DNA of 45,106 nt from Nanobdellota archaeon (GTDB lineage Archaea; Nanobdellota; Nanobdellia; Pacearchaeales; GW2011-AR1): positions 1 through 45,106 of the forward strand of contig JAGQJT010000006.1 in the NCBI GenBank assembly GCA_020430505.1, given 5' to 3'. The translations under genes were made by a program, and so were the position numbers. The notes beneath the pieces were generated by a model. That model saw only the letters and a program-made list of their open reading frames with translations, was not told the DNA's origin and ran no database searches. Position 1 is the first letter of the stretch; the number at the start of each line of letters is the position of its first letter. Shown one piece after another: positions 12,873 through 45,106 of this stretch.

Positions 12873-12918
12873 TAGGTAATTTAGGAAAAAAGGGTTTATA
12901 AAAATTATTGTGGACAGA

Positions 12919-19800: not shown

Positions 19801-20825
19801 AATTGAGTTCCAATCTCCAAATTCTCACTTAAAACTGTTGATCCCTCCTCTGTCAGATCTGTCGGAGTTACTGCAACAGACCAAACATCACCATTAGAAG
19901 TTTCGTTACTAAAAATTGCTTGAATGCTTTTTCCATTATTGGTGTAATTATAAATTGTTTCAACTTGCCCTTGAGAAAGTTCCCTATCAAAAACAAGAAA
20001 TTCATCTATTTTACCTTCGAATTCTGTACTTCCACTTCCACTAATAACATCTCCAATTACAAACTCACCAGAAGTGTCTGGAAGAGTATAAGTGCAACTT
20101 GATGTAGTATTCACCAAAACTCCGTCTTGATAAATATTACAAACACCAGTAGTAGAATTAAATGTTAAAATAATGTGAGACCAAATAGACCTAAAATCCT
20201 CCAAAGTTAAAACAGATGTTCCATTAACTCTGAAAGTCCACCTATTTGAATTGTAAATGTCAGATACAAACATAATATTCTCAGAAGTATGAGGATTTTC
20301 TACTTCTTTAACAAAAACCGTTTCATAACCTAGATCTGGAGTAGGATACATCCAAAAAGAAACACTAAATCCTTCAGAAAGCGTTAAAGAATCTGAATCT
20401 TCTACAACAATCCTATCATCATTGCCATCAAAAGTATAACAACCTCCAACCTTACACCCAGCAGCATTGGTCCAAGTAGGCACATATCCAGAAGTACCAT
20501 CCCCCAAAGTACCATTATTCCCATATGTAGAATAATCTCTCAACCCTTGAAAAGTTGTGCTACTATAACTCGTATCAAAAGGCATATTTAAAACAGCGAT
20601 ACTTGCCCCATCAACTCTCCAATCAGTAATGTTATAAACAGGATCAGAATCTCCATCAGATGCAGAAAAAATGATGGATAAATTTTCATCAGTGGTATTT
20701 GTTCCAGAAGAAGAATTAATTATCAAATTGCTAACACTTGGAGCCACAGCGAGAACGAAAGAGGAAATTAAAACAATTCCAATTAAAAAAATCAATGCAA
20801 AAACAATTGTACTCTTATTCTTCAT
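16887..20825 (-). CDS. large secreted protein: LamG, parallel beta-helix repeats, LamG
   Basis: Signal MKNKSTIVFALIFLIGIVLISSFVLA. Two copies of the N.TDWR..G.SIAVLNMPFD + LamG module (residues approx 30-320 and 930-1230) flank about 550 aa of N-rich 20-25-aa beta-helix-like repeats (NN.. I.. N.. S patterns, as in NosD/PbH1). Cys-rich C-terminus. Confidence 0.85.
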   Translation of the reverse strand: MKNKSTIVFALIFLIGIVLISSFVLAVAPSVSNLIINSSSGTNTTDENLSIIFSASDGDSDPVYNITDWRVDGASIAVLNMPFDTSYSSTTFQGLRDYSTYGNNGTLGDGTSGYVPTWTNAAGCKVGGCYTFDGNDDRIVVEDSDSLTLSEGFSVSFWMYPTPDLGYETVFVKEVENPHTSENIMFVSDIYNSNRWTFRVNGTSVLTLEDFRSIWSHIILTFNSTTGVCNIYQDGVLVNTTSSCTYTLPDTSGEFVIGDVISGSGSTEFEGKIDEFLVFDRELSQGQVETIYNYTNNGKSIQAIFSNETSNGDVWSVAVTPTDLTEEGSTVLSENLEIGTQFVGDCGTLSSPGTYKLTTNASSTDTCFTISSDNVTLDCQGNYVNYASSSTGYGVVNNGNDNLLIQNCNFNLSSLTVTNSIAVYSYGNVVNTNVKDSNVTIFTEHASTTNNFGIYYYQSLNSLIENVNVSSTSNGYFGYGDYGLYLRDSDNSRVINNEVYTRCYSCYALHLYSSDNITVYNNKFDTDFGRSFGIGNYYSDNCNISNNNVSTTDDDAGGDASFGIFLANSADNNILRNNRVTSLLAPSYVAYSGLGNDVDTSNYAEDYPVLFNDSLSDYVFENLNLSNYGQVLCANCNNVTYRNVTIRNDGLLQGSSTNGFVFDSDIVANTSHGLYFYSSSGYLVNNTNISTLSNDVNPLKLRVGSNNNNFTNNYISEDKNDYAIYLQDSDYLLFENNFIDSGGSNYATLFYGGTDYENFTNNYYNCPNFCLILDSSSYTESYFVNNSFNNGGYPYVVVVYRGNNNYVFVDNDFGGDSFYMNTAASNHTFNITNTSTLGGLYWNQETLNRYYLHDYVDVNATDGVNAVSGANVYAYDNNSVLRDSGTTSASGIERLTVLRDYENYTNSISYNNYTINGTKGMFYDEKSVNVTGYSVVNLTLGNVAPTNPLVEILSSLGTNTSAENLTVIISGSTDVNDDTIYNVTDWRINGTSIAVLNMPFDLNISSVDTNAVRDYSTYGNDGTITFVDNSPVWTNSCKVGGCYSFNRTGYVDLGSDLTFVNFTFSFWVYPHYVGGSKNIVLSKYSGYSNVYLTGDPAYVRTESFTNGQDWGFTSAVVPYDQWTHIAVVRQGDEVSVYLNGSFVENNTIAGADVTQIRYVSQNIASAFNGSIDEVKIFNRTLSPEQVQAIYLNESNGIASSLISSSETIVDENWSVAVTANDLINESETIISENLTILISGTCTYSGSGNWEVDCSDGCNITSEVNVGGNNISITGIGTFTTTANITNYDVLRIEGQDSANICTVRCQGGCFV

Positions 20826-23800: not shown

Positions 23801-26529
23801 TCATCACCATTAAAGGTATAGGTAACTGCACTTAAACTTGGAGCTTGACTATGATAAATCTTCGCAGCGTTAGAAACACTTCCCCTAAAATTAGATGAAA
23901 ATAAAACTAAATTTCCAATTTGAGAACTTGTCCCACTTGCTTTTATATCCCCTACAACTTCCAACACTTCCGAAGGACTCGTCGTCCCAATACCAACATA
24001 ACCATTTTCATTATCAACAAATAAATCAGTTCCCCCAACACTAAAATTATTGTCTCCCAAAACAACATTCTGGTTTGCTCCAGTGTAAGGAACATAAGAA
24101 TCATTTATTGTTGAATTGACCTCTCCCCAAGAATTTATACAATCTCCATCAATACAAAAACTTCCATTGATATTTGAATTTCCAGAAAGATACAAATCTT
24201 TCCATCTTAAGCTTGAAGAACCTAAATCAAAGGTGGCATCAAAACCTTCTTGAGGAAATAAAGATCCATTTATGTTTAAATTTGAAACTTGCAAAGAACT
24301 AATGTTGTAAACATAAACTGATTGAGCATACAAATCTCCTCCATTTATTGTAACACCTCCTTCACTCCAAGAGCCTCCAAAATTGTAAGTTCCAGTTCCA
24401 TTATCTCCATCATTTCTCAAAAAAGTTGCATCTGCGTAAGCAATAGCTGGAGTTGTTTGGTTATAAGCCCAAGTATCATAAGTTGAATTATATGTTGAAG
24501 ACCAAGAAGAATTATACAAACTAAAATTAGCAGTCCACAAAGGATCGGTTTCAGAACCACTAACAACATTACTCAAACAATTTCCTCCTTCAATACAAAA
24601 ATCAACTTGAGAACTAACATTCCCAAAAAAAGAATAATTATTCACTCCACTAAATGTTGCAGTATCAACGGCATATTTTCCAACTCCAATCTTCAAAGTT
24701 TCTTTTCCAGAAGCAGAAGCATTATACCCACTTATTAATAATTCTTTAGTTACTCCAGAAAAAGGTTCATAATAAAATTCAAATTCTTCAGAAGTTGCAT
24801 TTCCCAAAATCAAGTTAGAACCATTAACTCTCCAGATAAAATCATAACCTGAAGGGGTGGTTCCAAATTCCAATGCTTTTATATCAGTATCCAAATTAAT
24901 TTCTGCAACATTTCCATCTTGAGCATTATTCCAATTAAGAATCATCTCATGAGCCCCAGTATTTTTAAATAAAAGGGTCCCATCATCATCTCCAAAATCA
25001 AGAGTTAAAAGCTGGTCTGGATTCAAAGTTCCAATTCCAACATTTCCATTCATGAAAGAAATGTTTTCCGTATTGACATCAAAATAAGGATAACCATAAA
25101 CCTCCCCCCAATCACCAAATTGTAAAGCAAAATCATTTCCTGCCAAAGTTCCTGCTGCAGTAAATATATTCTCTCCGTCTGAATCTCTAAATGTTGCGAT
25201 ATTAGAACCTGCAACTCCTTCAACACTAAGAGCTCCAGCCTCACCATTTCCTCCAATAGATAACAAAGCAGCGGGAACTGTTGCCCCAATTCCAATATTT
25301 TCTCCACTTTGATAAATAACTGAATTATTCAAACTAGTTGTTCCGTTCCAAACCGGAATATAATTTGCAGTTCCTTCACCCGACAAAGTTCCAAGACCAT
25401 CGGTAACAGAGGATAAACAATTTCCTCCTTCAATACAAACATCAGCTGTTGCATTTACAAATCCACCAGAATAAATATTTCCAGTAAAATTTCCTGTTCC
25501 AAGAACGTTTAAAGTATTTTGAGGGGTTATGGTTCCAATCCCAACTCTACCTGTAGAAGGATCTATGATTAATATTTCATTTCCAGGAGTTTCTCCCCCA
25601 TATCTAAAAGTTCCGTCGCTGAATTTAACTGCAATAGATTCGTCATCCTCAGTAAGCAAACCCAATTCCCCCCCATAAGAATCATCACTTAAAATCAAAT
25701 AACCAACATTATCTTGACCGAATCTAACTTTATCAGAGAAGACATCAAATTCATATTGAGGGTTGTTAGTTCCAATACTTACATAACCAGTATTTGAATT
25801 CACAAAAAAAGTATCCGTATTTACAGTTAAATTTCCACCAACAACCAAATCATTACTTATATCAACATCAGTTACAAAAAGTTTAGAAATTCTATTTCCC
25901 AAACTTCCCAACCATCCAAAAAAACCTGTTCCAGTTGTGGTAATATTTTGAGAACCTAAATCAACATTTGAATCAGCTCCAGAATAAGGCACATAAGAAC
26001 CATTTGCAATACTAGCATTTATCCAGTTAAGATCATTACTAATTTGACTTCCGCTAATCCCAGTTAATTGAGAACCATCTCCAACAAAGTAAGAAGCAGT
26101 TACATTATAACTTCCAAAATCCAAATTAGAATCTACAATCAAACCTGAAGTAGTAGAATTTTTAGTTTGAAAAGAATAAGGACTTCTTGCAATTTTTGAG
26201 TTATTAATTAAAACGCCATCTCTGTAATAACATAAATAATATTGTTCATCAAAATCTAAGTTTACATTTTCCAAATAATAAGAGATAATTCCACGATTAT
26301 CTGTAGTTAAAGTGGTTGAATTAGAGTAAATAACTGGAGAACAATCTGATTCGTTTGAAATATTGAAAACAAAATCAAATGTTCCCGCAGTTATTTCTCC
26401 TGTTGAGGTATCTAAAGTTTGAATATTCAAATGCAACTCATCTAAGACAGTTGCAGAAGAAACAAAACTAAAGAAAAATATAATTGAAATTAAGTAAATT
26501 ACAAAATAAGTAGGAAATTTTTTCACCAT
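20848..26529 (-). CDS. giant secreted fibre-like protein with reiterated GNVGIGT..P...L.V.G and D.CIEGGNCLS modules
   Basis: 1893 aa with signal FVIYLISIIFFFSFVSSA. More than 10 copies of an (N/R)VGIGT(T/S).P motif, of the kind seen in tail-fibre-like proteins. Six copies of [DF]xC(I/T)(E/Y)GGNCLS plus a seventh degenerate one (FCIDGDCINS), four preceded by IYSGGFVNAT. Long internal nucleotide repeats. Confidence 0.85.
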   Translation of the reverse strand: MVKKFPTYFVIYLISIIFFFSFVSSATVLDELHLNIQTLDTSTGEITAGTFDFVFNISNESDCSPVIYSNSTTLTTDNRGIISYYLENVNLDFDEQYYLCYYRDGVLINNSKIARSPYSFQTKNSTTSGLIVDSNLDFGSYNVTASYFVGDGSQLTGISGSQISNDLNWINASIANGSYVPYSGADSNVDLGSQNITTTGTGFFGWLGSLGNRISKLFVTDVDISNDLVVGGNLTVNTDTFFVNSNTGYVSIGTNNPQYEFDVFSDKVRFGQDNVGYLILSDDSYGGELGLLTEDDESIAVKFSDGTFRYGGETPGNEILIIDPSTGRVGIGTITPQNTLNVLGTGNFTGNIYSGGFVNATADVCIEGGNCLSSVTDGLGTLSGEGTANYIPVWNGTTSLNNSVIYQSGENIGIGATVPAALLSIGGNGEAGALSVEGVAGSNIATFRDSDGENIFTAAGTLAGNDFALQFGDWGEVYGYPYFDVNTENISFMNGNVGIGTLNPDQLLTLDFGDDDGTLLFKNTGAHEMILNWNNAQDGNVAEINLDTDIKALEFGTTPSGYDFIWRVNGSNLILGNATSEEFEFYYEPFSGVTKELLISGYNASASGKETLKIGVGKYAVDTATFSGVNNYSFFGNVSSQVDFCIEGGNCLSNVVSGSETDPLWTANFSLYNSSWSSTYNSTYDTWAYNQTTPAIAYADATFLRNDGDNGTGTYNFGGSWSEGGVTINGGDLYAQSVYVYNISSLQVSNLNINGSLFPQEGFDATFDLGSSSLRWKDLYLSGNSNINGSFCIDGDCINSWGEVNSTINDSYVPYTGANQNVVLGDNNFSVGGTDLFVDNENGYVGIGTTSPSEVLEVVGDIKASGTSSQIGNLVLFSSNFRGSVSNAAKIYHSQAPSLSAVTYTFNGDENTGMYRMDSDKISLATGGSDRLVIDSSGNVGIGTSSPNYQFEVADNGDSLYFNSTSGIIGSTGRTDIKLYANDQNIFRGLDGWTGTWSDSVTTTYFQTGRSSGNTAFSASTGSLYNRLAFLVSDASESGILFTDSSGSNAVPNGYFEVRQNSGARTDFLIDYSGDVGIGTSSANQRLTVNGSTNISGDIYSGGFVNATTDVCIEGGNCLSDVVSGSETDPLWTANFSLYNSSWSSTYNASYVPYIGATSNLNLGSYAIYASNFKDNGDDVYVGTLSGNTDFANYVTGLGVNAANDNYGDFSTLIGYTAGYDNWGAYATAVGAASNYAAHGENVTSLGYFSGSLSSGNNTVAIGLSALQSNSGNDVVAIGYGAGIGNSASNKFIVQQSNVNATNLIYGDFATGQVNASDFCTYGGNCLSTVSAGSVGALTGEGTAGRIPLWNDTTSLNNSVIYQNSGNIGIGTANPNEELEVNGAVRSQQVLATGSGAHPSIANGYVELYVYNDGGTYTGRVLPYTGSSYIPLAIGDWNSGNPNIYLDTGGNVGIGKKPGTYKLDVGGNLKVVGSSNTTGDIYSGGFVNATTDICIEGGNCLSDAGTGNGNVSGGGIAGRLAYWTGSDILSSDLDLKWEESLERLGVRTSTPQNTLNVIGEGNFTGNFSVANNFFIDDSTGNVGIGEDYGKPGYALSILRDEPYIQLKKSGFSGGSSGIYFGDIFDDDVGRIIYNHTTDQIDFYTSAGLAFTSRYLSGKRYFGINVTSPSEALEVGGNINVTGDVCIEGGNCLSTVSASGLGAVTGAGTANYIPMWNGTTSLNNSNIYQLGTNIGIGTTTPQNTLNVIGNANISGGEIYLERNRAIQFPNSGGTMIDTFVVDTGGNSILSAVEDGGDIYIRSPSNVYGRFLNGGSVYLGGTSATSSPKFAILSGGNVGIGTTTPQNTLNVIGTGNFTGNVTTERIVFENSANNYIDDNSTCVKIHGATSILEIC

Positions 26530-26674
26530 TCTTTTAAAACCTCAACAAAATGTATTTCTACATTTATCCTACACTTTTTTACTATATAAATATTCCTTTT
26601 ACCTACATTTTACTTACCGTCGAGAAAACAAGAATAATTCAATTAAAAAAATAAATACTATTTTACTTACAGAT

Positions 26675-27910
26675 TTAACAGGTATAATCTGATATAATCC
26701 CTGCATCAAAACTCATGGTACAACTTCCAACATTGTAAGTTCCAGTTAAACCCTCATTTTCTCCGGAAACAAAACCTTCAGAGGCATGTACAAACCCAGA
26801 AACATCAAGAGTGTAACTTGGATAGTTCACACCAATTCCAACAGATTTAGAATCAATTATAAAATCTCCTTGAGCAGCCAATGGATCTTTTTTCACCCAA
26901 AATACTGGAGTATTTTCTAATAAAAATCTCATTTGATGATCATCATGAATATATTGAATTTCTGAAGCTTGAGGACTATCTGGTCTACTAAAAACAATTT
27001 TAGAAACTCCAGATTCTCCTTCAATTCCCAATCTGATTGCACCATTTCCAAGAATATCTAAATCATAATATCCATGTGGATTTTCAGTTCCAATTCCAAC
27101 ATTTCCGTTCATAAATGAAAATTTATTATTTGGAGCATCAATTATTAGTTTAGCTTGGCTTGAAGAATCAAAAGCATCTCCAATCAAAACTCTTCCTTGA
27201 TAGTTTTCTATTAAAAAATCAAATCCGTCATTAAATGCCCATAAACTGCCATAACCTTCATAAAACAAAACTGAAAAAGGATCATTATACATTCCAATTC
27301 CAAAAAAAGAACCTTCATTATCTTCAAAAATAATGGATTCGACAAGCTCATTAAGAGAATTCCATTTAAGAAGATAATATGCATCTTCTATAATTAATTC
27401 ATTTATGGGAGGATTATTTCCTTCACTTGAAGAGGAATATCCCTCACAACTTCCAATTTCATAAACGGATTCCCTCCCAAGAATAGCTTCATCTCCTTCT
27501 CCCCCAAGTATCGGAACCACAACGACTTTTCTAACATTAAAAGGTTTTAAATTATCAAGCATGAACAAAAATTGTTTTTCTTCAAGTTCTTTCAGAGAAT
27601 AATCTGCATCATGAACTTCAGAATTTAAGCAATCAGTAAATAAAAACCTTAATTTTTGAATATTTCCCTTACCCTGATTTCTTTTAACAACAACTTCCGA
27701 TTCATTTTGATCTTCAAAAGCTTGAACTTTTTTTATTTCCAAACTTACAGTAGTTTTACCTAATTCAATTCCAGTCTTAGCTTTTTCTATTACCCCCCGA
27801 GTTACTCCCCAAATTATTCCTGTAGAAACCAAAACTAAAAGAATTATAATCAAAGTGGTCACAATAGTAGCCATGCCTCGAGAATTTTTAAAAAAATAAT
27901 CACCCATCAA
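26675..27910 (-). CDS. putative archaeal type IV pilin-like (class III signal) protein with fibre-head C-terminal module
   Basis: The N-terminus KNSRG/MATIVTTLIIILLVLVSTGIIWG fits a basic-Gly cleavage site followed by a hydrophobic helix. The C-terminal approximately 175 aa are nearly identical to those of 28105..28905 and contain FMNGNVGIGTENP. Confidence 0.7.
   Translation of the reverse strand: MMGDYFFKNSRGMATIVTTLIIILLVLVSTGIIWGVTRGVIEKAKTGIELGKTTVSLEIKKVQAFEDQNESEVVVKRNQGKGNIQKLRFLFTDCLNSEVHDADYSLKELEEKQFLFMLDNLKPFNVRKVVVVPILGGEGDEAILGRESVYEIGSCEGYSSSSEGNNPPINELIIEDAYYLLKWNSLNELVESIIFEDNEGSFFGIGMYNDPFSVLFYEGYGSLWAFNDGFDFLIENYQGRVLIGDAFDSSSQAKLIIDAPNNKFSFMNGNVGIGTENPHGYYDLDILGNGAIRLGIEGESGVSKIVFSRPDSPQASEIQYIHDDHQMRFLLENTPVFWVKKDPLAAQGDFIIDSKSVGIGVNYPSYTLDVSGFVHASEGFVSGENEGLTGTYNVGSCTMSFDAGIISDYTC
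26704..27232. repeat. 529-bp direct repeat, copy A (pairs with 28146-28674)
   Basis: Aligned by eye with a constant offset of 1442 bp at both ends (no indels) and roughly a dozen scattered substitutions. Confidence 0.9.
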
Positions 27911-27947: not shown

Positions 27948-28070
27948 TGAGCCTACTCGGATTTGAACCGAGGACCTCTGGCTTTCTTAGAGTAAATCTG
28001 TGAAAGTTGTAATTCTCATGAATCACATTCCTATAAGACCAGCGCTCTAACCAGGCTGAGCTATAGGCTC
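27948..28070 (-). tRNA. tRNA-Ile (anticodon UAU) with a 48-nt intron at canonical position 37/38
   Basis: Cloverleaf built by hand. Acceptor GAGCCUA/UAGGCUC (7/7 pairs). D stem GCUC/GAGC. Anticodon stem CUGGU/GCCAG (one G-U). T arm CUCGG-UUCAAAU-CCGAG. Discriminator A, no encoded CCA. Loop C-U-UAU-A then the intron GGAAUGUG...CUAAGAA then A38. CUUA (32-35) can pair with UAAG in the intron, leaving two 3-nt bulges at the splice sites (BHB-like). Confidence 0.8.
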
Positions 28071-28104: not shown

Positions 28105-28905
28105 TTACTTAACTCCATCACAGGTAGTATAATACATTATTCCACCATCAAAACTCATAGTACAACTTCCAACATTGTAAGTTCCAGTTAAACCCTCATT
28201 TTCTCCGGAAACAAAACCTTCAGATGCATGCACAAATCCAGAAACATCAAGAGTGTAACCGGGATAGTTCACACCAATTCCAACAGATTTAGAATCAATT
28301 ATAAAATCTCCTTGAGCAGCCAATGGATCTTTTTTCACCCAAAATACTGGAGTATTTTCTAATAAAAATTTCATTTGATGATCATCATGAATATATTGAA
28401 TTTCTGAAGCTTGAGGACTATCGGGTCTACTAAAAACAATTTTAGAAACTCCAGATTCTCCTTCAATTCCCAATCTGATTGCACCATTTCCAAGAATATC
28501 TAAATCATAATATCCATAGGGGTTTTCAGTTCCAATTCCAACATTTCCATTCATAAATGAAAATTTATTATTTGGAGCATCAATTATTAGTTTAGCTTGG
28601 CTTGAAGAATCAAAAGCATCTCCAATCAAAACTCTTCCTTGATAGTTTTCTATTAAAAAATCAAATCCATCATTGACAGAAACAAAATCATTTTGGTTAT
28701 TATCAAACAAAAAACTATATGCATCTCCATGATTGTTAATTTTTAATAATTCTTCGTCAACAGTATCAGAATTGTATAGAGAAGAATCTACATTAACATC
28801 TCCAAAACCTCTCTTAACAAGATAATTTTCTTGAGCACTAACCAAAGAAAGTGTAAACACCAGAGTAATTAAAACGATAAAAAGAGGCAAAAATTTAAAC
28901 TTCAT
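28105..28905 (-). CDS. secreted (Sec-type signal) protein with the same fibre-head C-terminal module as 26675..27910
   Basis: Begins MKFKFLPLFIVLITLVFTLSLVSAQE. From NDGFDFLIENYQGRVLIGDAF to SCTMSFD the sequence is nearly identical to the pilin-like paralogue. Confidence 0.8.
   Translation of the reverse strand: MKFKFLPLFIVLITLVFTLSLVSAQENYLVKRGFGDVNVDSSLYNSDTVDEELLKINNHGDAYSFLFDNNQNDFVSVNDGFDFLIENYQGRVLIGDAFDSSSQAKLIIDAPNNKFSFMNGNVGIGTENPYGYYDLDILGNGAIRLGIEGESGVSKIVFSRPDSPQASEIQYIHDDHQMKFLLENTPVFWVKKDPLAAQGDFIIDSKSVGIGVNYPGYTLDVSGFVHASEGFVSGENEGLTGTYNVGSCTMSFDGGIMYYTTCDGVK
28146..28674. repeat. 529-bp direct repeat, copy B (pairs with 26704-27232)
   Basis: See copy A. The two copies flank the tRNA-Ile gene. 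Confidence 0.9.
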
Positions 28906-37470: not shown

Positions 37471-38032
37471 TTCCCATTAAATGTATCAACATATAATATA
37501 ATAAGATTATTGCAACTAAAATAAATGCAATAACTATCCATCTGTATTTCCATTTATGTTTATGGAAATTTTTTCTGTCTTTGTGTTTGACCTTGTCAAT
37601 TAATTCGTCCCCAAAATAAACGGATAAAAAAGTTCCTGCTGCAGAAAGAAGTATTATCAAACCATAAGGAAAAGGATGGGTGAGAATATTATAAAATATT
37701 TGAAGTAAAAATGTACTTTGATAAACACCCTTAAAAGAAATTAATGCAATTAAATTCACTATTGCTGCAATTATCCAAACAAAAACCTCTGAATGTAACA
37801 TTCTTATTTTTATCAAAAGTCTAATTGGCAAATCTAAGAACATTCCTGCATCTGCAACAGGAGTGCAAAATACAAAAAAAGACCAAGTTAGGATTGTAAC
37901 AAGAAATCCATGCCCCGCACCAAACCTCAAAGAAGCATAAATAAAATAAGCGATAACCAATAAAAAAACTCCTAAAAATCTAAAAGTAATGTGCCTTTTT
38001 GTTTCGTGTTTAAAAAAATCAAATTTCATCAT
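37460..38032 (-). CDS. polytopic membrane protein (hypothetical)
   Basis: 190 aa with about 5 hydrophobic helices. Confidence 0.6.
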   Translation of the reverse strand: MMKFDFFKHETKRHITFRFLGVFLLVIAYFIYASLRFGAGHGFLVTILTWSFFVFCTPVADAGMFLDLPIRLLIKIRMLHSEVFVWIIAAIVNLIALISFKGVYQSTFLLQIFYNILTHPFPYGLIILLSAAGTFLSVYFGDELIDKVKHKDRKNFHKHKWKYRWIVIAFILVAIILLYYMLIHLMGIKF

Positions 38033-38094
38033 CTCTTACCAGATAAATAAAATAAAAAACAAATATAAGTCTTTTGATTATGAAAACGTTTATC

Positions 38095-38139
38095 AAATCT
38101 TCTTTTTTATATGATTAATGGAAAACCAAGAGAAGATTT
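38095..38139 (+). repeat. ORF-less hairpin at the left edge of the cassette array
   Basis: AAATCTTCT (38095-38103) pairs with AGAAGATTT (38131-38139) around a 27-nt loop. It ends 2 nt before the left border of core 1 (TTGCGTTTAAC, from 38142), roughly where gene-bracketing right arms sit in the other units. Confidence 0.6.
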
Positions 38140-38141
38140 AA

Positions 38142-38260
38142 TTGCGTTTAACATCGGAATTATCTGAAGTTTCACGAAGTGAAATTTGGGAATTTTCGGC
38201 AGGAAATTTCCTTTTATCCCTTGTTATGTGGGGAGACTGCAAGTCGACCTACCGAAGGGA
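38142..38260 (+). repeat. structured intergenic core 1 (attC-like)
   Basis: Left border TTGCGTTTAAC (GTTTAAC at 38146-38152). Hairpin AAGTTTCAC-GAA-GTGAAATTT (38167-38187), then GGG. Hairpin GGAAATTT-TCGGCAGG-AAATTTCC. GTTATGT (38223-38229). GAC-TGCAA-GTC (38235-38245). Right border CCGAAGGGA. Confidence 0.8.
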
Positions 38261-38265
38261 CAGTT

Positions 38266-38529
38266 TTATTTTCGTGAATCATATTTAAACTTAATAAAAA
38301 CTTGAATTCCAGAAATAATTGTTGCAAATCCATTTGTGATTATCAGAGGATAATTCTTAATTAAGATTCCATAAATAGTCCAAAGTAACATACTAGAAAA
38401 GAAAATCAGAAGCATAGAGGTAGAAATGCCTTTAACTGATTTTGTTTTTAGGGACATCTTAATTTGTGGAATCATTGTAATTGCAACAAGTATTCCAGCT
38501 AAATATCCAATTATTTCTACGATTATCAT
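38266..38529 (-). CDS. SemiSWEET / PQ-loop sugar transporter (cassette 1 cargo)
   Basis: 87 aa with three TM helices and the PQ motif ITMIPQIKMSLKTKSVKGIS. Confidence 0.8.
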   Translation of the reverse strand: MIIVEIIGYLAGILVAITMIPQIKMSLKTKSVKGISTSMLLIFFSSMLLWTIYGILIKNYPLIITNGFATIISGIQVFIKFKYDSRK

Positions 38530-38580
38530 AATAAATGAATTAAGTTTAAGTTATATAAAAAGTTTTGTAAGAAAATAAAA

Positions 38581-38754
38581 TTGCACATAACATAGGGATT
38601 AAGGAGAGTTAATTTTACAGAGCGGAACGACGAAGGAGTGACCTCGTAAAATTAATTTGGGAGAGGACTGCAAGTCCGAACTCTTTAACCGTTGTTAAGT
38701 CGTGTGAGCGTTAGCGAAAGTCTGCAAGACGGCACCGAAGCCGAAGGCGAAGGA
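38581..38754 (+). repeat. structured intergenic core 2 (attC-like, enlarged)
   Basis: TTGCACATAAC. A long arm ATAGGGATTAAGGAGAGTT pairs imperfectly with AACTCTTTAACCGTTGTTAAG. Inner stem AATTTTAC...GTAAAATT. ATTTGGG. GGAC-TGCAA-GTCC (38665-38677). GTTAAGT. GTC-TGCAA-GAC (38720-38730). Three consecutive C-GAA-G units (38735-38754). Confidence 0.75.
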
Positions 38755-38938
38755 ATTTTTTCTTCTACGTTAAGAAAATTTAAATCTCTATTTTTAGGGT
38801 GGAAAGTACGCGCTTTTTGCTTACTTTTTTCTAAAAAGTAAGTCGCCACGAAAGGCGAAAATTGGTGACCGAAGAATTTTTAAACTTTAGAAATTTGGTA
38901 ATATCAATAACTGTCCCGTATGGTTCGCCATATTGGGA

Positions 38939-39460
38939 CTACTTTTTATTTAATGCTTTTCTTAGATTTATTGAACCGTCGCAACAATTTCTTAATTGAT
39001 ATGATGAACTTTTTGGAAAGAAAGCATTGATTACTTTTTTGCCATTCTTTCTTGCTAGGTTTATCGCAGGAATAAAATCTGCATCTCCTGAAACGATTAT
39101 TGCAACATCGTATAAATTTTCATAAGAACCTCTAATTAAATCTGTTGCTAAATAAACATCGTCACCTTTTATTGCAAAATCCAAAGAACCGTCTGGCAAA
39201 ATAATTTTTCTTAAATTGCAAAGAACAATATTGAAATTTGGAATTTTCTTTATTTTGTCTAAGAATCTTTTATGTTCTTTGTACTTTGCTTCATCTATTG
39301 ATTTGTCTAGAAGAGCAGTATAATAAAAAATATCTACAATTTCTCTTTTTGTTTCTATTCTTTTTATTATGTCTTCAAATTTTGTTTTTATGTCGTATCT
39401 TTTTAGATTATGATAAAGATTACTTCCATCGATAAAAATAGCAACTCTTTGATTGTTCAT
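38939..39460 (-). CDS. NYN/LabA-like (DUF88) domain protein (cassette 2 cargo)
   Basis: RVAIFIDGSNLYHNL near the N-terminus and IIVSGDADFIPAI later in the sequence. Confidence 0.85.
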   Translation of the reverse strand: MNNQRVAIFIDGSNLYHNLKRYDIKTKFEDIIKRIETKREIVDIFYYTALLDKSIDEAKYKEHKRFLDKIKKIPNFNIVLCNLRKIILPDGSLDFAIKGDDVYLATDLIRGSYENLYDVAIIVSGDADFIPAINLARKNGKKVINAFFPKSSSYQLRNCCDGSINLRKALNKK

Positions 39461-39575
39461 AGAACTATAGAGAAAGAAGAGTTTTAAGTTTTATTGTTCT
39501 TAGAAATTTTCCAAAGCCCTTCAAAATAATTCTTCAAAATTTTAAATTTTGACTAACTTTTAGCTCGCCCGCTTA

Positions 39576-39697
39576 TTGAAACTAACATCGGGATTATCTG
39601 AAGTTTGACGAAGTCAAATTTGGGTGAGGACTGCAAGTCAGAACCAGATAATCGCTGTTATACGTTTTTTCTGCAAGAAAAAAAGCCGAAGGCTCAG
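39576..39697 (+). repeat. structured intergenic core 3 (attC-like)
   Basis: TTGAAACTAAC. Arm AACATCGGGATTATCTG (39584-39600) pairs with CAGATAATCGCTGTT (39645-39659), leaving a TC bulge. Hairpin AAGTTTGAC-GAA-GTCAAATTT (39601-39621). GGG. GAC-TGCAA-GTC (39629-39639). GTTATAC (39657-39663). TTTTTTC-TGCAA-GAAAAAA. GCC-GAA-GGC. Confidence 0.85.
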
Positions 39698-39821
39698 TTA
39701 AATTTTCACGTTAATAAATATCGACTGAAAGGAGTCTATATGTCCGAAGGACGAGGGGGAGTCCAGATTTTTTGTTTCTTTTTTTTAAAAAAATAAAATA
39801 GAGGGGCTTCTATGTTAAAGT

Positions 39822-41072
39822 TTAATCAAAATTTCTTATTAACTTAAATAAATTCCAAAAAGGGTGTGAGAAAAATCTTTTGTAATACTTACTTAACATC
39901 TTAGAATTTTCATGTACCTCTTTTTCAGCAATAATTAATGAATATTTTTTGTTAATATTCGCCCATGCTTCTGTCATTTCAGTTTTATTTTTTGGTCCAG
40001 GAATTTCAATTTTATCGTATTTTCTGAAAATTGCAAAGTTTATTGCTAACCAAAGAGAAATAAATCTGACTCCTAAAAAATTTTCACTTTTTGCATCAAT
40101 TAGTGAGGGGATAAATAGTTTTGGCATGATGAGTTCTAAATCGTTTAGATTACCTAAAACAAATGCCATATTCCATGAAGTATATAAGCTAGCCCATTCT
40201 TGACTTGTTTCTATCGTAGGAAAAAGATTTTTTTTATAATATGATTTGTAAAATGGATTAACATTGTCTGGAACAACAGTCTTTTTTTTGAATATTGTTT
40301 TTGGGCGATTTATCTTTAGATATTCACACAAAGTGTGTGCACATAAGGCATTTGCTCTAAATCCATTATTGTATTCTGTAATTCCTGCTTCATATATGTT
40401 AATTCTTACTAGCTCATTAATGTGTTGATTGTGGTTTTGCCTAATTGGTGATAGAAGCCTATAGTCAATATAGTTTATTTGTTCATCTCTATACAGCTTT
40501 TTTAATTCCTCTTTTTGTAGTTGGGTTTTTGACAATCCTCTTTGAAGTTTAAAATATACTAAAAAAGGATCAAGTGAGAATGGTTTTGCTATATCAAAAA
40601 AATGAGGCGAAATTTTTAATGCGTTTAAAAAAGTTCTAAAAGGGTGTTGAGTATTCAATCCTAATTCTTGTTCTTTTTTCTTATAGTGATTTTGAACTTC
40701 AATAAAAAAATCATGGTCGTTGCACATTGTTGCTGTAAAAGATTCAAGGATATATGCAATGTGTACTGCTTTAATCATATTTTTTGATGGTTTAAACCAA
40801 CTGTTCTCGTTTCCTAACGCTAAGAATTCAACTATTGCAGGATGTTTTTTTAAGATAGCTTTTTTGATAATCTTAAACATTGAATCTAATTTCTTGGATT
40901 TAGTTTTACTTTCTTGTAGAAATTTACTTATGATTTTATTCTTAGTTTTGAAGTCATGCAATCTGATTTCTTTTAGAACTTCTCTTATTGTTTTAGGATT
41001 AGTTGTTAAATCATTTGATAAACCAAACAATAAAAATGATTTTTCAACAACCTCTTTTTTACTTTTTTCCAT
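39822..41072 (-). CDS. hypothetical protein (cassette 3 cargo)
   Basis: 416-aa ORF with no recognisable catalytic motif; no tyrosine-recombinase R..HxxR..Y pattern was seen. Confidence 0.65.
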   Translation of the reverse strand: MEKSKKEVVEKSFLLFGLSNDLTTNPKTIREVLKEIRLHDFKTKNKIISKFLQESKTKSKKLDSMFKIIKKAILKKHPAIVEFLALGNENSWFKPSKNMIKAVHIAYILESFTATMCNDHDFFIEVQNHYKKKEQELGLNTQHPFRTFLNALKISPHFFDIAKPFSLDPFLVYFKLQRGLSKTQLQKEELKKLYRDEQINYIDYRLLSPIRQNHNQHINELVRINIYEAGITEYNNGFRANALCAHTLCEYLKINRPKTIFKKKTVVPDNVNPFYKSYYKKNLFPTIETSQEWASLYTSWNMAFVLGNLNDLELIMPKLFIPSLIDAKSENFLGVRFISLWLAINFAIFRKYDKIEIPGPKNKTEMTEAWANINKKYSLIIAEKEVHENSKMLSKYYKRFFSHPFWNLFKLIRNFD

Positions 41073-41253
41073 TATATTATGTTAATAATTTGAAGAATTT
41101 ATAACTTTTGCTTTTTTAAAAGAAAATGATGAAAGCCCCTCTTAATAAATTTCTTTTACGAAGTAAAAGTCAATATGTGCGTAGCACCTGGACTCCCCCT
41201 CTTTTGCTTCTTTTTCTAAAAGAAGAATGAGATTTAGATTAGTGAAAATTTAA

Positions 41254-41396
41254 TTGCGTATAACATCGGAATTTAACGAAGTCGCCAAAGGCGATTTGGG
41301 AGAATGAGGAGTGAGCTTGGCGAACGACGAATGAACCGTTAAATTCCTGTTAAACTCTTTTTGCATACGAAGTATGTAAAAACTTCGTCCGAAGAG
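41254..41396 (+). repeat. structured intergenic core 4 (attC-like)
   Basis: TTGCGTATAAC (GTATAAC at 41258-41264). Arm AACATCGGAATTTAACG (41262-41278) pairs perfectly with CGTTAAATTCCTGTT (41337-41351) except for a TC bulge (41266-41267). Hairpin TCGCC-AAA-GGCGA. ATTTGGG. GTTAAAC (41349-41355). CATAC-GAA-GTATG. Right border TCCGAAGAG. Confidence 0.85.
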
Positions 41397-41472
41397 TTTT
41401 TGAATTGCTAACAATTATTTTTGTAAGATTACACTTATACTATAAGGCTACAGAAAATAGTTACTAGAAGTT

Positions 41473-41488
41473 GGAAAGTTTTAAATAT
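41473..41488 (+). promoter_or_regulatory. BRE/TATA-like promoter motif GGAAAGTTTTAAATAT
   Basis: Lies 22-37 nt upstream of the ATG at 41510, inside the cassette-specific inverted repeats. Confidence 0.45.
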
Positions 41489-41509
41489 GTATTTAAATAA
41501 GAGTTAAAC

Positions 41510-42682
41510 ATGGACTTAATAATCATCCTAATTGCAATATCTTTCTTAGTTATCATATTTGCAAAACCATTTTTTAACAAACTAAATATTCCTCTGAGTT
41601 TTAGTGCTATGTTTATTGGCATGGTCTTAGGGACTTTGCCATTATTTCAAGAGACTGCTAATACAGATACTTTCTCTTGGTTTGCAAATCTGGGTATGCT
41701 TTTTATGATCTTTTCGATAATCTTTCAGATGAAAGGGTCAAAACATAAACAGGATAAAGCACTTGGAAAATATTTGATAAAAGCAGGCATAAAAGTTATT
41801 ACATTGGAACTATTAATAATATTTCCATTAGTATACTTCTTTTTAGAAAAAAATATTCTTAGTGCATTGTTAATCAGTTTAATATTTACAACTGTTGCTG
41901 AAGTAATGGTAATACCTTTTCTAAAAAAATTCAAGATAATAAATACAAAACTGGGAAAATCAATTGTAGGGATAGGTATCTTAGACAATGCTTTTGAATA
42001 TATAGTCATCCTGATTGCCAGTTTCTCAAGTGTTGGTGGAGATGCAAATATTAAGACATTAACAATCGCGGCAGTTGCTACAATAACTGCATTTATTTTG
42101 GTAAGATCTTTCTCTAAAACAAAATATCTTGAACATATTGTAAAAAATTTAGATTCAAATGGTTTATTTTTATTATCTATTGGAGCATTATTTTTATTTA
42201 GTGGTATCTTGTCATTAATTGGACTAGAATTTTTGGGAGCAGTTATTGCTGCGATTCTTATAAAAAACATTGTTAAAGAGTTACCTAAAAATCATAATGA
42301 TGAGTTAAATAAGATAATTAATGCAAGTTCAGAAGGATTATTCGGACCAATATTTTTCTTGTGGGTAGGGGTCACAACAAACTTGATGTACATTGTTCAA
42401 AAACCAGGTCTAGCAATAATATTTGTGCTAGTAGGTTTATTCGCAAAAATAATCCCAACAGTTATTGCAACAGCAAAAGATATGAATATTCACTCGTCAA
42501 TTATATTAGGTATAGCATTAAAATTCGGTTCAGGAATAATTTTTATCAAATTACTCTTTGAAAAAGGTATGATTACAGAATTAACATATACACTAACAGT
42601 TGCTGCAATACTATTATATAGAATACTTATTCCACTTTTACTAGGACATTTTATTACCAAATGGAAGAAAGACTTAGTTTAG
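41510..42682 (+). CDS. cation:proton antiporter (CPA/Kef-type Na+/H+ exchanger family) (cassette 4 cargo)
   Basis: 390 aa with about 11-12 TM helices. The N-terminal layout (IILIAISFLVIIFAKPFFNKLNIPLSFSAMFIGMVLG) is typical of Na_H_exchanger family proteins. Confidence 0.75.
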   Translation: MDLIIILIAISFLVIIFAKPFFNKLNIPLSFSAMFIGMVLGTLPLFQETANTDTFSWFANLGMLFMIFSIIFQMKGSKHKQDKALGKYLIKAGIKVITLELLIIFPLVYFFLEKNILSALLISLIFTTVAEVMVIPFLKKFKIINTKLGKSIVGIGILDNAFEYIVILIASFSSVGGDANIKTLTIAAVATITAFILVRSFSKTKYLEHIVKNLDSNGLFLLSIGALFLFSGILSLIGLEFLGAVIAAILIKNIVKELPKNHNDELNKIINASSEGLFGPIFFLWVGVTTNLMYIVQKPGLAIIFVLVGLFAKIIPTVIATAKDMNIHSSIILGIALKFGSGIIFIKLLFEKGMITELTYTLTVAAILLYRILIPLLLGHFITKWKKDLV

Positions 42683-42722
42683 AATACTTATTTTCTGTAG
42701 CCGTTTGTTAGCAATTCAAAAA

Positions 42723-42807
42723 TTGAGTTTAACCCTTGTTATACGCCCCGACGACTGAAAGGAGGAGAGCGCAGCGTGGTCGAGCGGAGTGAAACGGAGC
42801 GAAGAAG
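42723..42807 (+). repeat. structured intergenic core 5 (minimal variant)
   Basis: In TTGAGTTTAAC-CCTT-GTTATAC the two boxes (42727-42733 and 42738-42744) are only 4 nt apart and the inner hairpins are absent. This is followed by a GC-rich module containing GAGAGCGCAGCGTGGTCGAG (42765-42784) and the right border GCGAAGAAG. Confidence 0.8.
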
Positions 42808-42824
42808 TTGATTTAGAGGCACGA

Positions 42825-43148
42825 TTACTTGCCATATTTATCAATAAGAAAACCCAACGCTGAACCAAGAATTAAAGTCATTATGGTTATCGGTATTAGT
42901 GAAAATGGTTCTTGCCAACCAATAATTATTGCAGAAGGTAATAACACAAGAAATGGAATAATTATGCCCTTGGCTACGCCTTTTATTTTTAGATCACTTG
43001 TTGCGATTAGAAAGCCAGAGATTATCCAAAGGGAAAAAGCTGACAGATTTGCATCCCATGTCAATTTTTGAAGAACCATTGGGATAACATCAATTACTCC
43101 AGCTATGATTCCAAGTAAAATACCAAGTTGGGTTTTCTTCATGCTCAT
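42825..43148 (-). CDS. small 3-4 TM membrane protein (cassette 5 cargo)
   Basis: 107-aa hydrophobic ORF. Confidence 0.6.
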   Translation of the reverse strand: MSMKKTQLGILLGIIAGVIDVIPMVLQKLTWDANLSAFSLWIISGFLIATSDLKIKGVAKGIIIPFLVLLPSAIIIGWQEPFSLIPITIMTLILGSALGFLIDKYGK

Positions 43149-43206
43149 AATTATAACCTTAATTTATTAGAATTTAAATAACTTTCTCTAAGTGCCTCTA
43201 AATCAA

Positions 43207-43280
43207 TTGCGTATAATTCCTGTTAATTGTCCCGAGCCGATAGGCGAGAGCGCAGCGTGGTCGAGGCGAAGCCGAAGAAG
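43207..43280 (+). repeat. structured intergenic core 6 (minimal variant)
   Basis: TTGCGTATAA-TTCCT-GTTAATT looks like core 4 with its interior deleted. Then GCC-GATA-GGC, the same 20-nt block GAGAGCGCAGCGTGGTCGAG (43246-43265), and GCGAAGCCGAAGAAG. Confidence 0.8.
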
Positions 43281-43328
43281 TTTGAGATTTGGGCGTAATC
43301 AGTATAAACTCTAGAGTGGTAATTGAGC

Positions 43329-43342
43329 GAAAGATTTAAAAA
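43329..43342 (+). promoter_or_regulatory. BRE/TATA-like promoter motif GAAAGATTTAAAAA
   Basis: Lies 25-38 nt upstream of the ATG at 43367, inside the cassette-specific inverted repeats. Confidence 0.4.
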
Positions 43343-43366
43343 GTTCTTATCAATTCTTATATTAAT

Positions 43367-43741
43367 ATGACAGATTCAAATGCACTTTTGGTAAAACCAA
43401 AGATAAGTAAATGGGGAGAAATCAGAGCATACTTAGCTCACGATTTTGATGCTCTTGATTTAGACCATCAAATTTATGTTCCTGAAAGATTTGTTTTAGG
43501 ACACTTTAGGGAGAGGAAAGATGGTTTCAAATTAAGTCAAGGCGGAATTTTTTATAGAGATTCTTCGGAAGCATTAACACAATATCAAAAACATCTTGAC
43601 GATGGAAAAATGGAAGTTGTGCAAGAATTATTGTTACCTGAATCTGTTTTAGAGACAATTGCACAACAGGGTAAAGTGTATATTGATGCAAGAAAACAAA
43701 TCTCTGAATCTGTCCAATCAGTTGATCAATATTTAGTTTAA
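43367..43741 (+). CDS. hypothetical protein (cassette 6 cargo)
   Basis: 124-aa soluble ORF with no motif recognised. Confidence 0.55.
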   Translation: MTDSNALLVKPKISKWGEIRAYLAHDFDALDLDHQIYVPERFVLGHFRERKDGFKLSQGGIFYRDSSEALTQYQKHLDDGKMEVVQELLLPESVLETIAQQGKVYIDARKQISESVQSVDQYLV

Positions 43742-43777
43742 ATCTTTCGCTTTCTATCTTTTAGCCCAAATCTCAAA

Positions 43778-43935
43778 TTGAGTTTAACATCGCGATTAAG
43801 AGAAGTTTGGCGTAGCCAAATTTGGGGAAATTTTCTGCAAGAAAATTTACCTCTTAATCGCTGTTATATTCTTCCGATAGGAACGAGGGATAGTCTGCAA
43901 GACGGTTTTTTGCGAAGCAAAAAAATCCCGAAGAG
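43778..43935 (+). repeat. structured intergenic core 7 (attC-like)
   Basis: TTGAGTTTAAC (GTTTAAC at 43782-43788). Arm AACATCGCGATTAAGAG (43786-43802) pairs perfectly with CTCTTAATCGCTGTT (43851-43865) except for a TC bulge (43790-43791). Hairpin AAGTTTGGC-GTA-GCCAAATTT (43803-43823). GGGG. ATTTTC-TGCAA-GAAAAT. GTTATAT (43863-43869). TTCC-GATA-GGAA. GTC-TGCAA-GAC. TTTTTTGC-GAA-GCAAAAAA. CCGAAGAG. Confidence 0.85.
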
Positions 43936-44101
43936 TTGTGTTTAAGTTCCAATAAATACTGCGTAGCAGACTATATGTCCAAAGGACTGGGGAGAGTTCC
44001 GTTCTTTCAAAAAAGCGTAGCGTTACATATAGAACAAGTATTAAGGGGCACACTCAGATTTAGCAAATATTAATAAATGAATAGTCATATTTAATTTATA
44101 A

Positions 44102-45106
44102 ATGGAAGCTAATAATAATTCAGATAGATTTGAATTAATCTACTCATTTTTTATGTTGATATTTGGATTTGGAATTATTGCTTGCTTTCTGGTTGCGATT
44201 GGTTTCATCATTTACATATACAATTTTATGTTTCTCATTTATTGTTGGCCTATCTTGGTTGGCATCTGGTTAGGAATTTTTAGGAAATCAGATAAAGGAT
44301 ATGAAATGGAGTTAAAACAAGAAGATGCCAAAAAATTAAATGGAATTATAGAAAAAATCATCAAAAAAACTGGACAAAAAAAGCCCTATAAAATAATTCT
44401 TTCAGAAGGTAGTGGAATTGCCGTAAGTGGATTGTTCAGGAAAAAACTAATCATTGGATTGGCTACACTTCAATTGTTAAACGAAAAAGATTTACTTGCA
44501 ATCATCGCACATGAATACGGACATTTTGCTAAGAAAGATACTATTTTAGGATATTTCACATATAGAATACAGAATTTTATTGAATTGCAAAAGGAAATAA
44601 ACAAGCAAAATATAGGAGTTAGTTTTACAATTGTGATTTATTTACCAACCTGGCTTTTTTTCTATTTACTTTCAAAATATTATACTCTTATTAGTTTGTG
44701 GTATAGCAGAAGAGTTGAATATAGAGCAGATAGATTCGCCGCAGATTTAGTCGGAGAAAAAGAGTTTGCTGATGCTCTTGTTAAATATTGTGTAATAAGT
44801 GAGATTTTTGAAAATGTGATTCCCCAACATATTATTCATTTTCTCCAACAAGATAAGCAGTTAGTCAAAATGAATAAAATGTGATTCCCCAACATATTAT
44901 TCATTTTCTCCAACAAGATAAGCAGTTAGTCAATATTTACGATTATATGAATCCAATATATACAGAAGACAATATCAAAAAGTCTTTCAAAGGAGTTTTA
45001 TCCGATAAAAGCAGTTGGTGGTCAACGCATCCAAGCATAAGTGAAAGACTGGAAGCACTAAATACTAAATCTGTTGAGGTAAATATCAATACCAATCTAA
45101 AGGATT
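44102..45106 (+). pseudogene. M48-family (HtpX/Ste24-like) zinc metallopeptidase interrupted by a 65-bp duplication (cassette 7 cargo; 3' end outside the window)
   Basis: N-terminal TM helices and HEYGH (IAHEYGHFAKKD). The frame ends at 44884 (..LVKMNKM*). From 44881 a second frame repeats VIPQHIIHFLQQDKQLV and continues open to the window end, including WWSTHPSISERL, the conserved C-terminal M48 motif. Confidence 0.65.
44811..44933 (+). repeat. tandem duplication: two perfect 58-bp copies with a 7-bp spacer (period 65)
   Basis: 44811-44868 equals 44876-44933 (AAAATGTGATTCCCCAACATATTATTCATTTTCTCCAACAAGATAAGCAGTTAGTCAA). The spacer is AATGAAT. Confidence 0.95.

Follow-up and report, generated by a model that had tools for sequence, protein, structure and literature searches.

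Strand-specific, covarying cores in a gene-cassette array of a Nanobdellota archaeon, probable attC-like sites of a XerA-type recombinase

The window analysed here is the entire contig JAGQJT010000006.1 of a Nanobdellota archaeon (45,106 nt; approximately 30% G+C). The closest relatives of its housekeeping GTPase, at most 71% identical, carry the names Nanoarchaeota or Candidatus Pacearchaeota, which places the contig among the DPANN archaea. From position 38140 to the contig end it carries short, functionally unrelated genes encoding a SemiSWEET transporter, a NYN nuclease, a Na+/H+ exchanger, an M48 peptidase and three unknown proteins, with seven structured elements (five full and two collapsed), here termed cores, placed between them. 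All of the cores lie on the + strand and within 5.7 kb (38140 to 43872). A full core is enclosed by a 5' box with an invariant TAAC and a 3' box with an invariant GTTA, the flanks of which are variable, and its interior is composed of two hairpins (hairpin 1 and hairpin 2) on a covarying closing stem, while beyond the 3' box there is a variable tail with small G+C-rich hairpins. The cores are probably recombination sites that resemble attC and are recognised by their structure; they would belong to a chromosomal array of gene cassettes that is served by a XerA-type recombinase, in a DPANN host (Nanoarchaeota / Pacearchaeota-like). The array runs into the contig end, so its recombinase end is not included in the window. 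The following features were recognised (bit scores refer to the covariance model R1, built from five cores and scanned over the 45 kb):

38140-45106, + strand: gene-cassette array, extending from c1 up to the last base of the contig; the cores found with R1 are confined to this region and all are on the + strand
38140-38232, + strand: core c1 (78.5 bits), with the 5' box ATTGCGTTTAAC (38141-52), TC (38154-55), hairpin 1 (TTTCAC-GAA-GTGAAA), TTTGGG (38185) and the 3' box TGTTA (38222-26)
38227-38265, + strand: tail after c1, with small G+C-rich hairpins and GNA loops (GACTGCAAGTC, CCGAAGG)
38266-38529, - strand: cassette gene encoding a SemiSWEET / PQ-loop protein of 87 aa (Pfam MtN3_slv, 3e-10)
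38579-38703, + strand: core c2 (27 bits), with the 5' box (38580-91), the 3' box (38693-97) and a three-way fold
38939-39460, - strand: cassette gene encoding a NYN-domain nuclease of 173 aa (Pfam NYN, 1.6e-24; PADLOC HEC-09, 6e-21)
39574-39666, + strand: core c3 (86.8 bits; fold z = -3.6), with the 5' box (39575-86), TC (39588-89) and the 3' box (39656-60)
39822-41072, - strand: cassette gene encoding a protein of 416 aa without a family match, between the inverted 14-mers GAGGGGGAGTCCAG (39762) and CTGGACTCCCCCTC (41190)
41252-41358, + strand: core c4 (84.7 bits), with the 5' box (41253-64), TC (41266-67) and the 3' box (41348-52)
41510-42682, + strand: cassette gene encoding a Na+/H+ exchanger of 390 aa (Pfam, 7e-20)
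42721-42747, + strand: collapsed core c5 (17 bits, matching the model ends only), recognised by direct reading
42742-42824, + strand: c5 tail, which belongs to the recurrent CCCGA...GAGAGCGCAGCGTGGTCGA...GAAGAAGTT type
42825-43148, - strand: cassette gene encoding a protein of 107 aa, with no function assigned by Pfam and PADLOC searches
43205-43231, + strand: collapsed core c6 (11.1 bits), ATTGCGTATAA-TTCC-TGTTAATTG
43367-43741, + strand: cassette gene encoding a protein of 124 aa with no assigned function, which recurs in the related contig L001 with another downstream core and other neighbours
43776-43872, + strand: core c7 (106.3 bits), with the 5' box (43777-88), TC (43790-91) and the 3' box (43862-66)
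43867-44060, + strand: tail after c7, with GTCTGCAAGAC, TTTTTTGCGAAGCAAAAAA (GCGAAGC at 43912-18), CTGCGTAGCAG and TATATGTCCAAAGGAC
44102-44884, + strand: cassette gene encoding an M48 peptidase (Pfam, 9e-16), shortened by a 65-bp tandem duplication

The R1 model identified c1, c2, c3, c4 and c7, as well as the two collapsed copies, and nothing more in the contig. An earlier examination of this DNA, made from its letters without database searches (the sequence-only reading), had proposed that the conserved feature of the cores is a fold, formed by single-stranded DNA more probably than by RNA. Its description of hairpin 1, whose shape is kept while its sequence changes, proved accurate: the version listed above for c1 is replaced by TTTGAC-GAA-GTCAAA in c3, TTTGGC-GTA-GCCAAA in c7 and TCGCC-AAA-GGCGA in c4, and (A)TTTGGG follows each of them. 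The closing arms, which were said always to pair, do so in c3 (GGGATTATCTG/CAGATAATCGC, with one G.G), c4 (GGAATTTAACG/CGTTAAATTCC, 11 of 11 positions) and c7 (GCGATTAAGAG/CTCTTAATCGC, perfectly), but the decayed arms of c1 (38156-66 vs 38211-21), the core at the array end distal to the recombinase side, pair poorly, and those of c2 only with bulges. The two extrahelical bases, TC, reported for c3, c4 and c7 are present there and additionally in c1; c2 has TA instead, together with a long hairpin 1 and the hairpin 2 GGACTGCAAGTCC. Hairpin 2 of c7 contains CTGCAAG, and the DNA fold of this core reaches -23 kcal/mol (z = -7). In the collapsed core c5 the 5' box ATTGAGTTTAAC and the 3' box TGTTATACG are joined by CCT, the hairpin interior being deleted, and c6 corresponds to a full core of the c4/X1 type minus its interior (compared with L001, positions 611-705).

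The abundance of small loops noted in the same reading was also borne out by counting in the 38100-44060 region. The pentaloop unit CTGCAAG occurs seven times on the + strand and its reverse complement not at all (two copies are present in the other 38 kb of the window), and the triloop units, of which more than 15 had been reported, amount to 19 CGAAG and 5 CGTAG on the + strand, compared with 2 CTTCG and 3 CTACG. The density of CGAAG is 3.19 per kb in this region and 0.16 per kb elsewhere (a 20-fold difference). The exact GCGAAGC of the c7 tail does exist, one base downstream of the position originally given for it.

A 22-base pattern search produced matches on at least 120 metagenome contigs, and the recurrence and locus counts given below come from the contigs listed in it. 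The copies originate from groundwater, sediments and other metagenomes, and a model search found at least 215 copies in 100 sources. Copies present on the same contig are nearly always on one strand, with as many as 12 on contig L186. No match to the core-specific pattern was found in viral contigs, a looser pattern (TAACATCGN{20,50}ATTTGGG) gave lone chance matches only in genome contigs (L003-L122 among the matches listed), and Rfam gave no gathering-score match to the cores and none at E <= 1 in the 38000-44100 region. The consensus of 147 distinct copies reads AATTG-nnnn-TAAC-A-[TC]-G-s-r-a-TT-w-a-n-n-G-AAGT-(hairpin 1)-ATTT-GGG-(hairpin 2)-C-n-n-t-w-AA-t-y-s-c-TGTTA-nnnn. In this scheme TAACA pairs with TGTTA, the following 11 nt pair with the partner arm, TC is excluded, and AAGT pairs with ATTT, including a G.T wobble. 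The two adjacent extrahelical bases are highly conserved (T in 146 and C in 135 of the 147 copies), and the central region is otherwise paired.

The fold is under selection. In the alignment of these copies (A2), 95.8% of the paired cells are complementary, compared with 80.5% after shuffling and 31-45% with slid partners; two-sided changes occur in 10 of the 11 arm pairs, and compensatory cells number 351 vs 97 +/- 11.5. None of 500 shuffles reached the observed values. As A2 had been fitted to the structure, the test was repeated on elements defined by sequence anchors alone, in which within-element pairing equals 8.43 of 11 positions, compared with 6.08 +/- 0.095 for arms re-dealt between elements. 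Hairpin 1 behaves in the same way: its 154 distinct versions pair at 4.69 of 6 positions vs 2.62.

Loops and wobbles are also strongly asymmetric between strands. In 628 kb of sequence turned to the direction of the cores, and for stems of 4 bp or more, C-GAA-G loops were found 154 times on the core strand and 5 times on its complement, T-GCA-A loops 100 and 2 times, and C-GTA-G loops 62 and 2 times, which makes GNA loops 30 to 50 times commoner on the + strand. A 5'C:3'G pair closes 60-66% of the GAA and GTA loops (312 of 472 for GAA), against an A+T-rich background, and this closing pair is known to make d(GNA) loops very stable (PMC3201870, PMC13037366). Among the wobbles of the closing stem, G.T prevails over A.C (51 vs 13, p = 2e-6), and 131 of 138 copies have a G.T pair where hairpin 1 begins. 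These counts support the + strand as the only folded one, in agreement with the earlier suggestion, made from the loop repertoire, of single-stranded DNA; the fold is probably one of DNA rather than RNA.

The borders of the exchanged unit were located by comparing contigs. The region of the 124-aa gene is 100% identical between the window and L001 up to GAGTTTAACATCG, beyond which the core and the genes of L001 differ, and three further contig pairs (L160/L241, L125/L162 and L173/L226) break at the same point. All four of these independent identity breakpoints fall at nnnn|TAAC of the 5' box, whereas the 3' box has none; the members of the L160/L241 pair are alike from TAAC onward and unlike in the variable nnnn. 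Moreover, the 4 nt following TGTTA of one core perfectly complement the 4 nt preceding TAAC of the next core in 52 of 97 cases, compared with 17 of 161 for the two boxes of the same core and 5% for random pairs. Complementary boxes of this kind are carried by the window pairs c1-c2, c3-c4, c4-c5 and c5-c6. The breakpoints and the complementary ends together define the unit as C-core-TGTTAxyz-tail-gene-ATTGx'y'z'TAA, so that the cores bound single-gene cassettes. The median core spacing in related arrays is 1.24 kb, and the genes within cassettes are oriented at random relative to the cores (40 + vs 38 -), which indicates that the cores are not oriented by transcription.

Two other arrangements were considered and rejected. 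The reading of the + strand as the 'top' strand in the integron sense, with a crossover at the 3' GTT, was abandoned in view of the 5'-box breakpoints and the co-oriented recombinase at the 3' side. Inversion between a 3' box and the next 5' box, as a source of the random gene orientation, was discarded as well, since 3' boxes never carry the expected CAAT.

The cassette genes of the window are likewise found on both strands (four - and three +). The Na+/H+ exchanger and 124-aa genes occur elsewhere on short contigs only, and the exact M48 peptidase product has no record elsewhere. The 65-bp tandem duplication (44811-44936; 98% identical) lies inside the M48 peptidase gene, the reading frame of which ends early at 44884. 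A PADLOC search with the cassette proteins lacking an assignment revealed nothing except the NYN match.

Several additional recurrent elements were observed in and around the tails. The tail type found after c5 is also present after c6 (43226-43300), after X1 of L001 (L001 700-770) and after approximately 13 metagenome cores, and the end of this CCCGA..GAGAGCGCAGCGTGGTCGA..GAAGAAGTT family is formed by a remnant that resembles GAAGTT / TTTGGG. Tails also have, at their gene-side end, the conserved module ACTATATGTCC-GNA-GGAC-(G)GGGGAGTYC, observed in the window (39730-39772 and 43965-44007) and in L125, L162, L247 and L001. Cassettes also possess an inner layer of inverted repeats: GGGGRGTYC is placed in the post-core tail (for 22 of 29 copies, a 5' box lies no more than 400 nt upstream), its reverse complement shortly precedes the following 5' box (at a distance of up to 200 nt for 19 of 27 copies), and the pair brackets the gene symmetrically, whichever the gene direction. 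The window example (39756-39775 / 41190-41203) includes the 14-mers GAGGGGGAGTCCAG and CTGGACTCCCCCTC at either side of the 416-aa gene. Near cassette ends, the hairpin CTTCTTTTTCTAAAAGAAG (TCTA loop) recurs between T-runs, in the window (41205-41226), in L001 (1385-1415) and in L126, L154 and L214, and may act as a two-way terminator; TTCTA loops number 50, vs 14 for the complement.

Rearranged cores were observed as well. A permuted variant (L001 3410-3540; L249, approximately 9700-9870) is arranged as 5' box - arm' - 3' box ... TTCGTTGG ... arm - AAGT - hairpin, in which the arms are still complementary and their order is reversed. In L126 and L154, the core is common from AATTTGGG onward and differs in hairpin 1 and the 5' parts, which suggests exchange or replacement within the core.

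The most recurrent open reading frame (ORF) family on the contigs listed encodes a tyrosine recombinase of approximately 270 aa, present at 12 loci; at each of the 12, its gene is situated 3' of the array and shares the strand of the cores. By NCBIfam it is a XerA (NF040815, score 240.8 vs a cutoff of 220), and the best PDB match is XerA of P. abyssi. The array-linked recombinases match TIGR02249 in two pieces, with scores of 201.5, 194.1 and 168.5, all under the cutoff of 265; the alignment to VchIntIA also falls into two pieces, which leave out the IntI-specific domain, query residues 190-194 bridging VchIntIA residues 200-245. A second recombinase clade (approximately 40% identical), which is followed by other genes (Elp3, SRP54), shows the same array arrangement and is also devoid of the IntI insert. 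A search starting from the recombinase recovered a large family, named Pacearchaeota or Nanoarchaeota, with variable accessory genes and same-strand cores upstream. Downstream, the recombinase gene adjoins a topoisomerase IA gene, which is followed by conserved core genes.

In four lineages (L243-L250), the neighbourhood could be described further: xerA adjoins a co-oriented gene of a type IA topoisomerase (750-840 aa), and then the genes of L15e, MetRS and ParA.

At related loci, a terminal site is located approximately 100 nt upstream of the recombinase ATG. Here an ordinary 5' box precedes a perfect palindrome, which replaces the core and is often of the 11-6-11 type (e.g., TGTTATCATAA-CTAAAC-TTATGATAACA). 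This palindrome resembles dif in its geometry, and the exchange junction is placed 3-5 nt outside it. The analogy with integron attC sites drawn in the sequence-only reading thus extends to the genome organisation, with boundaries at the 5' box, complementary cassette ends, and a tyrosine recombinase and an attI-like terminal site at one array end.

According to the mechanism that we propose, the + strand would fold, as single-stranded DNA, into a three-way junction composed of the closing stem, hairpin 1 on its invariant AAGT/ATTT base with the G.T wobble, and hairpin 2, and would be stabilised by the d(C-GNA-G) and d(T-GCA-A) mini-loops. The closing stem would recreate a Xer-type core site, consisting of the arm nnnnTAA, a 6-bp centre CA-GSRn (with TC flipped out) and the arm TTAnnnn. 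The folded stem, TAA-CA(TC)GSRn-TTA, equals TAA-N6-TTA only with TC extruded, and has N8 as a duplex; the TC bulge may therefore be fixed because its extrusion gives the TAA-N6-TTA geometry of dif. XerA, encoded at the array head (an end that for the window would lie beyond its last base), would bind to the folded core and cleave its 5' arm at or beside TAA|C. Recombination of one folded core with another would release a cassette as a circle, the complementary ends of which would lengthen the closing stem, while exchange between a core and the terminal site beside the recombinase gene would insert the cassette there. By analogy with integrons and CTX phage, a single strand would be exchanged and the product resolved by replication.

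Several observations weigh against this mechanism. A tblastn search of the window for a recombinase found none, and no terminal site is present in it either, so that the link with the recombinase rests on related contigs. That recombinase resembles a conserved, possibly housekeeping XerA within a topoisomerase IA operon, and it could be adjacent because insertion favours this locus, not because the enzyme is dedicated to the arrays. The fold does not include the conserved ATTG of the 5' box; the 3' half already reads TAA-N6-TTA as a duplex, which leaves room for a double-stranded reaction; the extrahelical bases are on the arm proposed for cutting, unlike in attC; and the identity breakpoints available are only four. 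The folding of both strands as DNA and as RNA, which the sequence-only reading had put forward as a check, proved of limited use, as nearest-neighbour energies neither tell DNA from RNA nor strongly favour one strand.

Some of these points favour double-stranded Xer recombination, in which a core would be an inverted pair of duplex dif-like sites, ATTGnnnnTAA-N8-TTAnnnnAAGT (5') and nnnnTAA-N6-TTAnnnn (3'), and the hairpin a by-product or an aid to cruciform extrusion. Bacterial gene modules placed between inverted Xer sites are known (the pdif modules of Acinetobacter), as are the classical integrative mobile elements exploiting Xer (IMEX), the enzyme here is a Xer, and the 5' box, including the ATTG outside the fold, fits an archaeal dif arm, as the TAA-N6-TTA of the 3' half fits a duplex site. 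We nevertheless regard this explanation as unlikely: it gives no reason for variable arms to covary with partners 60-150 nt away, it leaves unexplained the GNA loops, the G.T wobbles and the invariant wobble on one strand only, and its 5' duplex site would have a spacer of 8 nt. In addition, the central regions vary between cores, and all breakpoints are at the 5' box. Transcription of the + strand across the array, with the cores serving as processing, insulator, terminator or small-RNA elements, would account for the tolerated G.U wobbles and for the advantage of 4-5 kcal/mol that the + strand has over the - strand when folded as RNA, and covariation alone cannot separate RNA from DNA. A structured RNA is still very improbable, since core orientation is independent of the genes and follows the recombinase at 12 of 12 loci, which also speaks against the cores being 3' untranslated region terminators of neighbouring genes, an objection anticipated in the sequence-only reading. 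Moreover, the 5' box is the precise point at which exchanged sequence parts between contigs, the cassette ends are complementary, Rfam contains no related family at the threshold given above, and C-GNA-G with C:G closure is a DNA mini-hairpin motif (PMC3201870, PMC13037366). It is even harder to credit that the cores are selfish palindromic repeats, of the repetitive extragenic palindrome (REP) / bacterial interspersed mosaic element (BIME) or miniature inverted-repeat transposable element (MITE) type, spread by a transposase and having no role in cassette exchange. Such elements would indeed be intergenic, palindromic and numerous, with collapsed and permuted copies, as the cores are; however, the cores occupy one locus per contig in a single orientation, the recurrent neighbours on the contigs listed include no transposase, REP-associated tyrosine transposase (RAYT) or HUH gene, and neither complementary cassette ends nor a fixed relation to a tyrosine recombinase would be expected.

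The remainder of the window contains other features. A tRNA (27948-28070, - strand; 123 nt) was detected by Rfam (58.6 bits) and missed by ARAGORN, and is probably of the intron-containing archaeal type. It is bracketed by a 300-nt direct repeat (92% identical; 26663-26962 and 28105-28404), which corresponds to the ends of two paralogous ORFs of the - strand. Three giant ORFs of the - strand, rich in internal repeats (6561-12977, 2138 aa; 16887-20825, 1312 aa; and 20848-26529, 1893 aa), probably encode surface proteins.

Integron integrases are thought to descend from Xer-like recombinases, and we know of no intermediate between the two. It is conceivable, and we propose it tentatively, that DPANN archaea of the Pacearchaeota-like kind possess their own analogue of the integron, based on XerA and a dif-like site, in which the cassette sites, folded as single strands, come to imitate dif only through the extrusion of two bases. 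The passage from chromosome resolution by Xer/dif to integron-type gene capture would then have a living example, either as an independent invention or as a relative of the integron ancestor. If so, an abundant archaeal cassette platform with an unmodified XerA-type enzyme and dif-mimicking folds would make the Xer-to-integron question testable, would explain the variable pool of methylases, transporters and defence genes in the very small DPANN genomes, and would offer a compact structure-specific recombination system. It would also mean that surveys requiring IntI or classical attC models overlook an entire class of cassette arrays. Searches of the full-text literature revealed no earlier account of arrays of this kind.

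Individual traits of the cores are shared with several known systems. Like d(GCGAAGC)-type mini-hairpins, a biophysical motif, they contain GNA triloops with 5'C:3'G closure, and they differ in having GCA loops closed by T:A inside C...G. The modules of Acinetobacter are similarly strung between inverted Xer-type sites, but those are duplex XerC/D sites on plasmids, without a conserved hairpin interior or strand-specific loops. In CTX-phage attP(+) and IMEX, as is proposed here, the substrate of the Xer is a folded single strand imitating dif, the centre of which is irregular, and copies pile up in tandem beside a dif-like site; the present system is archaeal, with a single XerA, single-gene cassettes instead of phages, and an exchange point that is not within the palindrome but 3-5 nt beyond it. 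The dif site of P. abyssi is ATTGGATATAA-TCGGCC-TTATATCTAAA (PMC2958812), and in haloarchaea a dif-like site is located upstream of the xerA operon (PMC11840125). The archaeal Xer/dif systems (P. abyssi, T. kodakarensis and haloarchaea) thus share with the arrays the NF040815 family, the arm ATTGnnnnTAA, TAA-N6-TTA and an 11-6-11 palindrome upstream of xerA (PMC2958812, PMC11840125), whereas the known archaeal dif is one duplex site that serves to resolve dimers, without a cassette array or folded sites.

The archaeal integrons of Ghaly et al. (2022) have a true IntI and classical attCs (PMC9668308). Their Pacearchaeales attC is a classical 59-nt site, unrelated to the core family (PMC9668308), and the supplement of that study contains no copy of the core motif. 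The likeness to the integron system (IntI / attI / attC) is nevertheless extensive and includes: (i) co-oriented imperfect palindromes between single-gene cassettes, those of the window conforming to the spacing by which integrons are recognised (at least two co-oriented attC less than 4 kb apart); (ii) the outer boxes, nnnnTAAC / GTTAnnnn here and RYYYAAC / GTTRRRY in attC; (iii) a stem conserved in structure and variable in sequence, with extrahelical bases and one preferred strand; (iv) exchange at the AAC box, where the breakpoints agree with a crossover in AAC/GTT (the exact phosphate being beyond the resolution of such data) and the complementary ends with the formation of one site upon circularisation; (v) a divergently placed tyrosine recombinase gene beside a distinct attI-like site, as seen in related loci; and (vi) accessory cargo (methylases, transporters and toxin-antitoxin pairs). 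A further difference from attC is that the cores form a three-way junction, in which AAGT and ATTTGGG are invariant, and possess an additional ATTG. The system works like an integron and is set apart from integrons by three points: its recombinase is of the XerA type, without the IntI-specific domain; its cassette genes have no orientation bias, while those of integrons are mostly co-oriented and promoterless behind Pc; and its extrahelical bases are an adjacent, central TC on the arm of the exchange point, in contrast to the T and G on the R''/L'' arm and the unpaired central spacer of attC.

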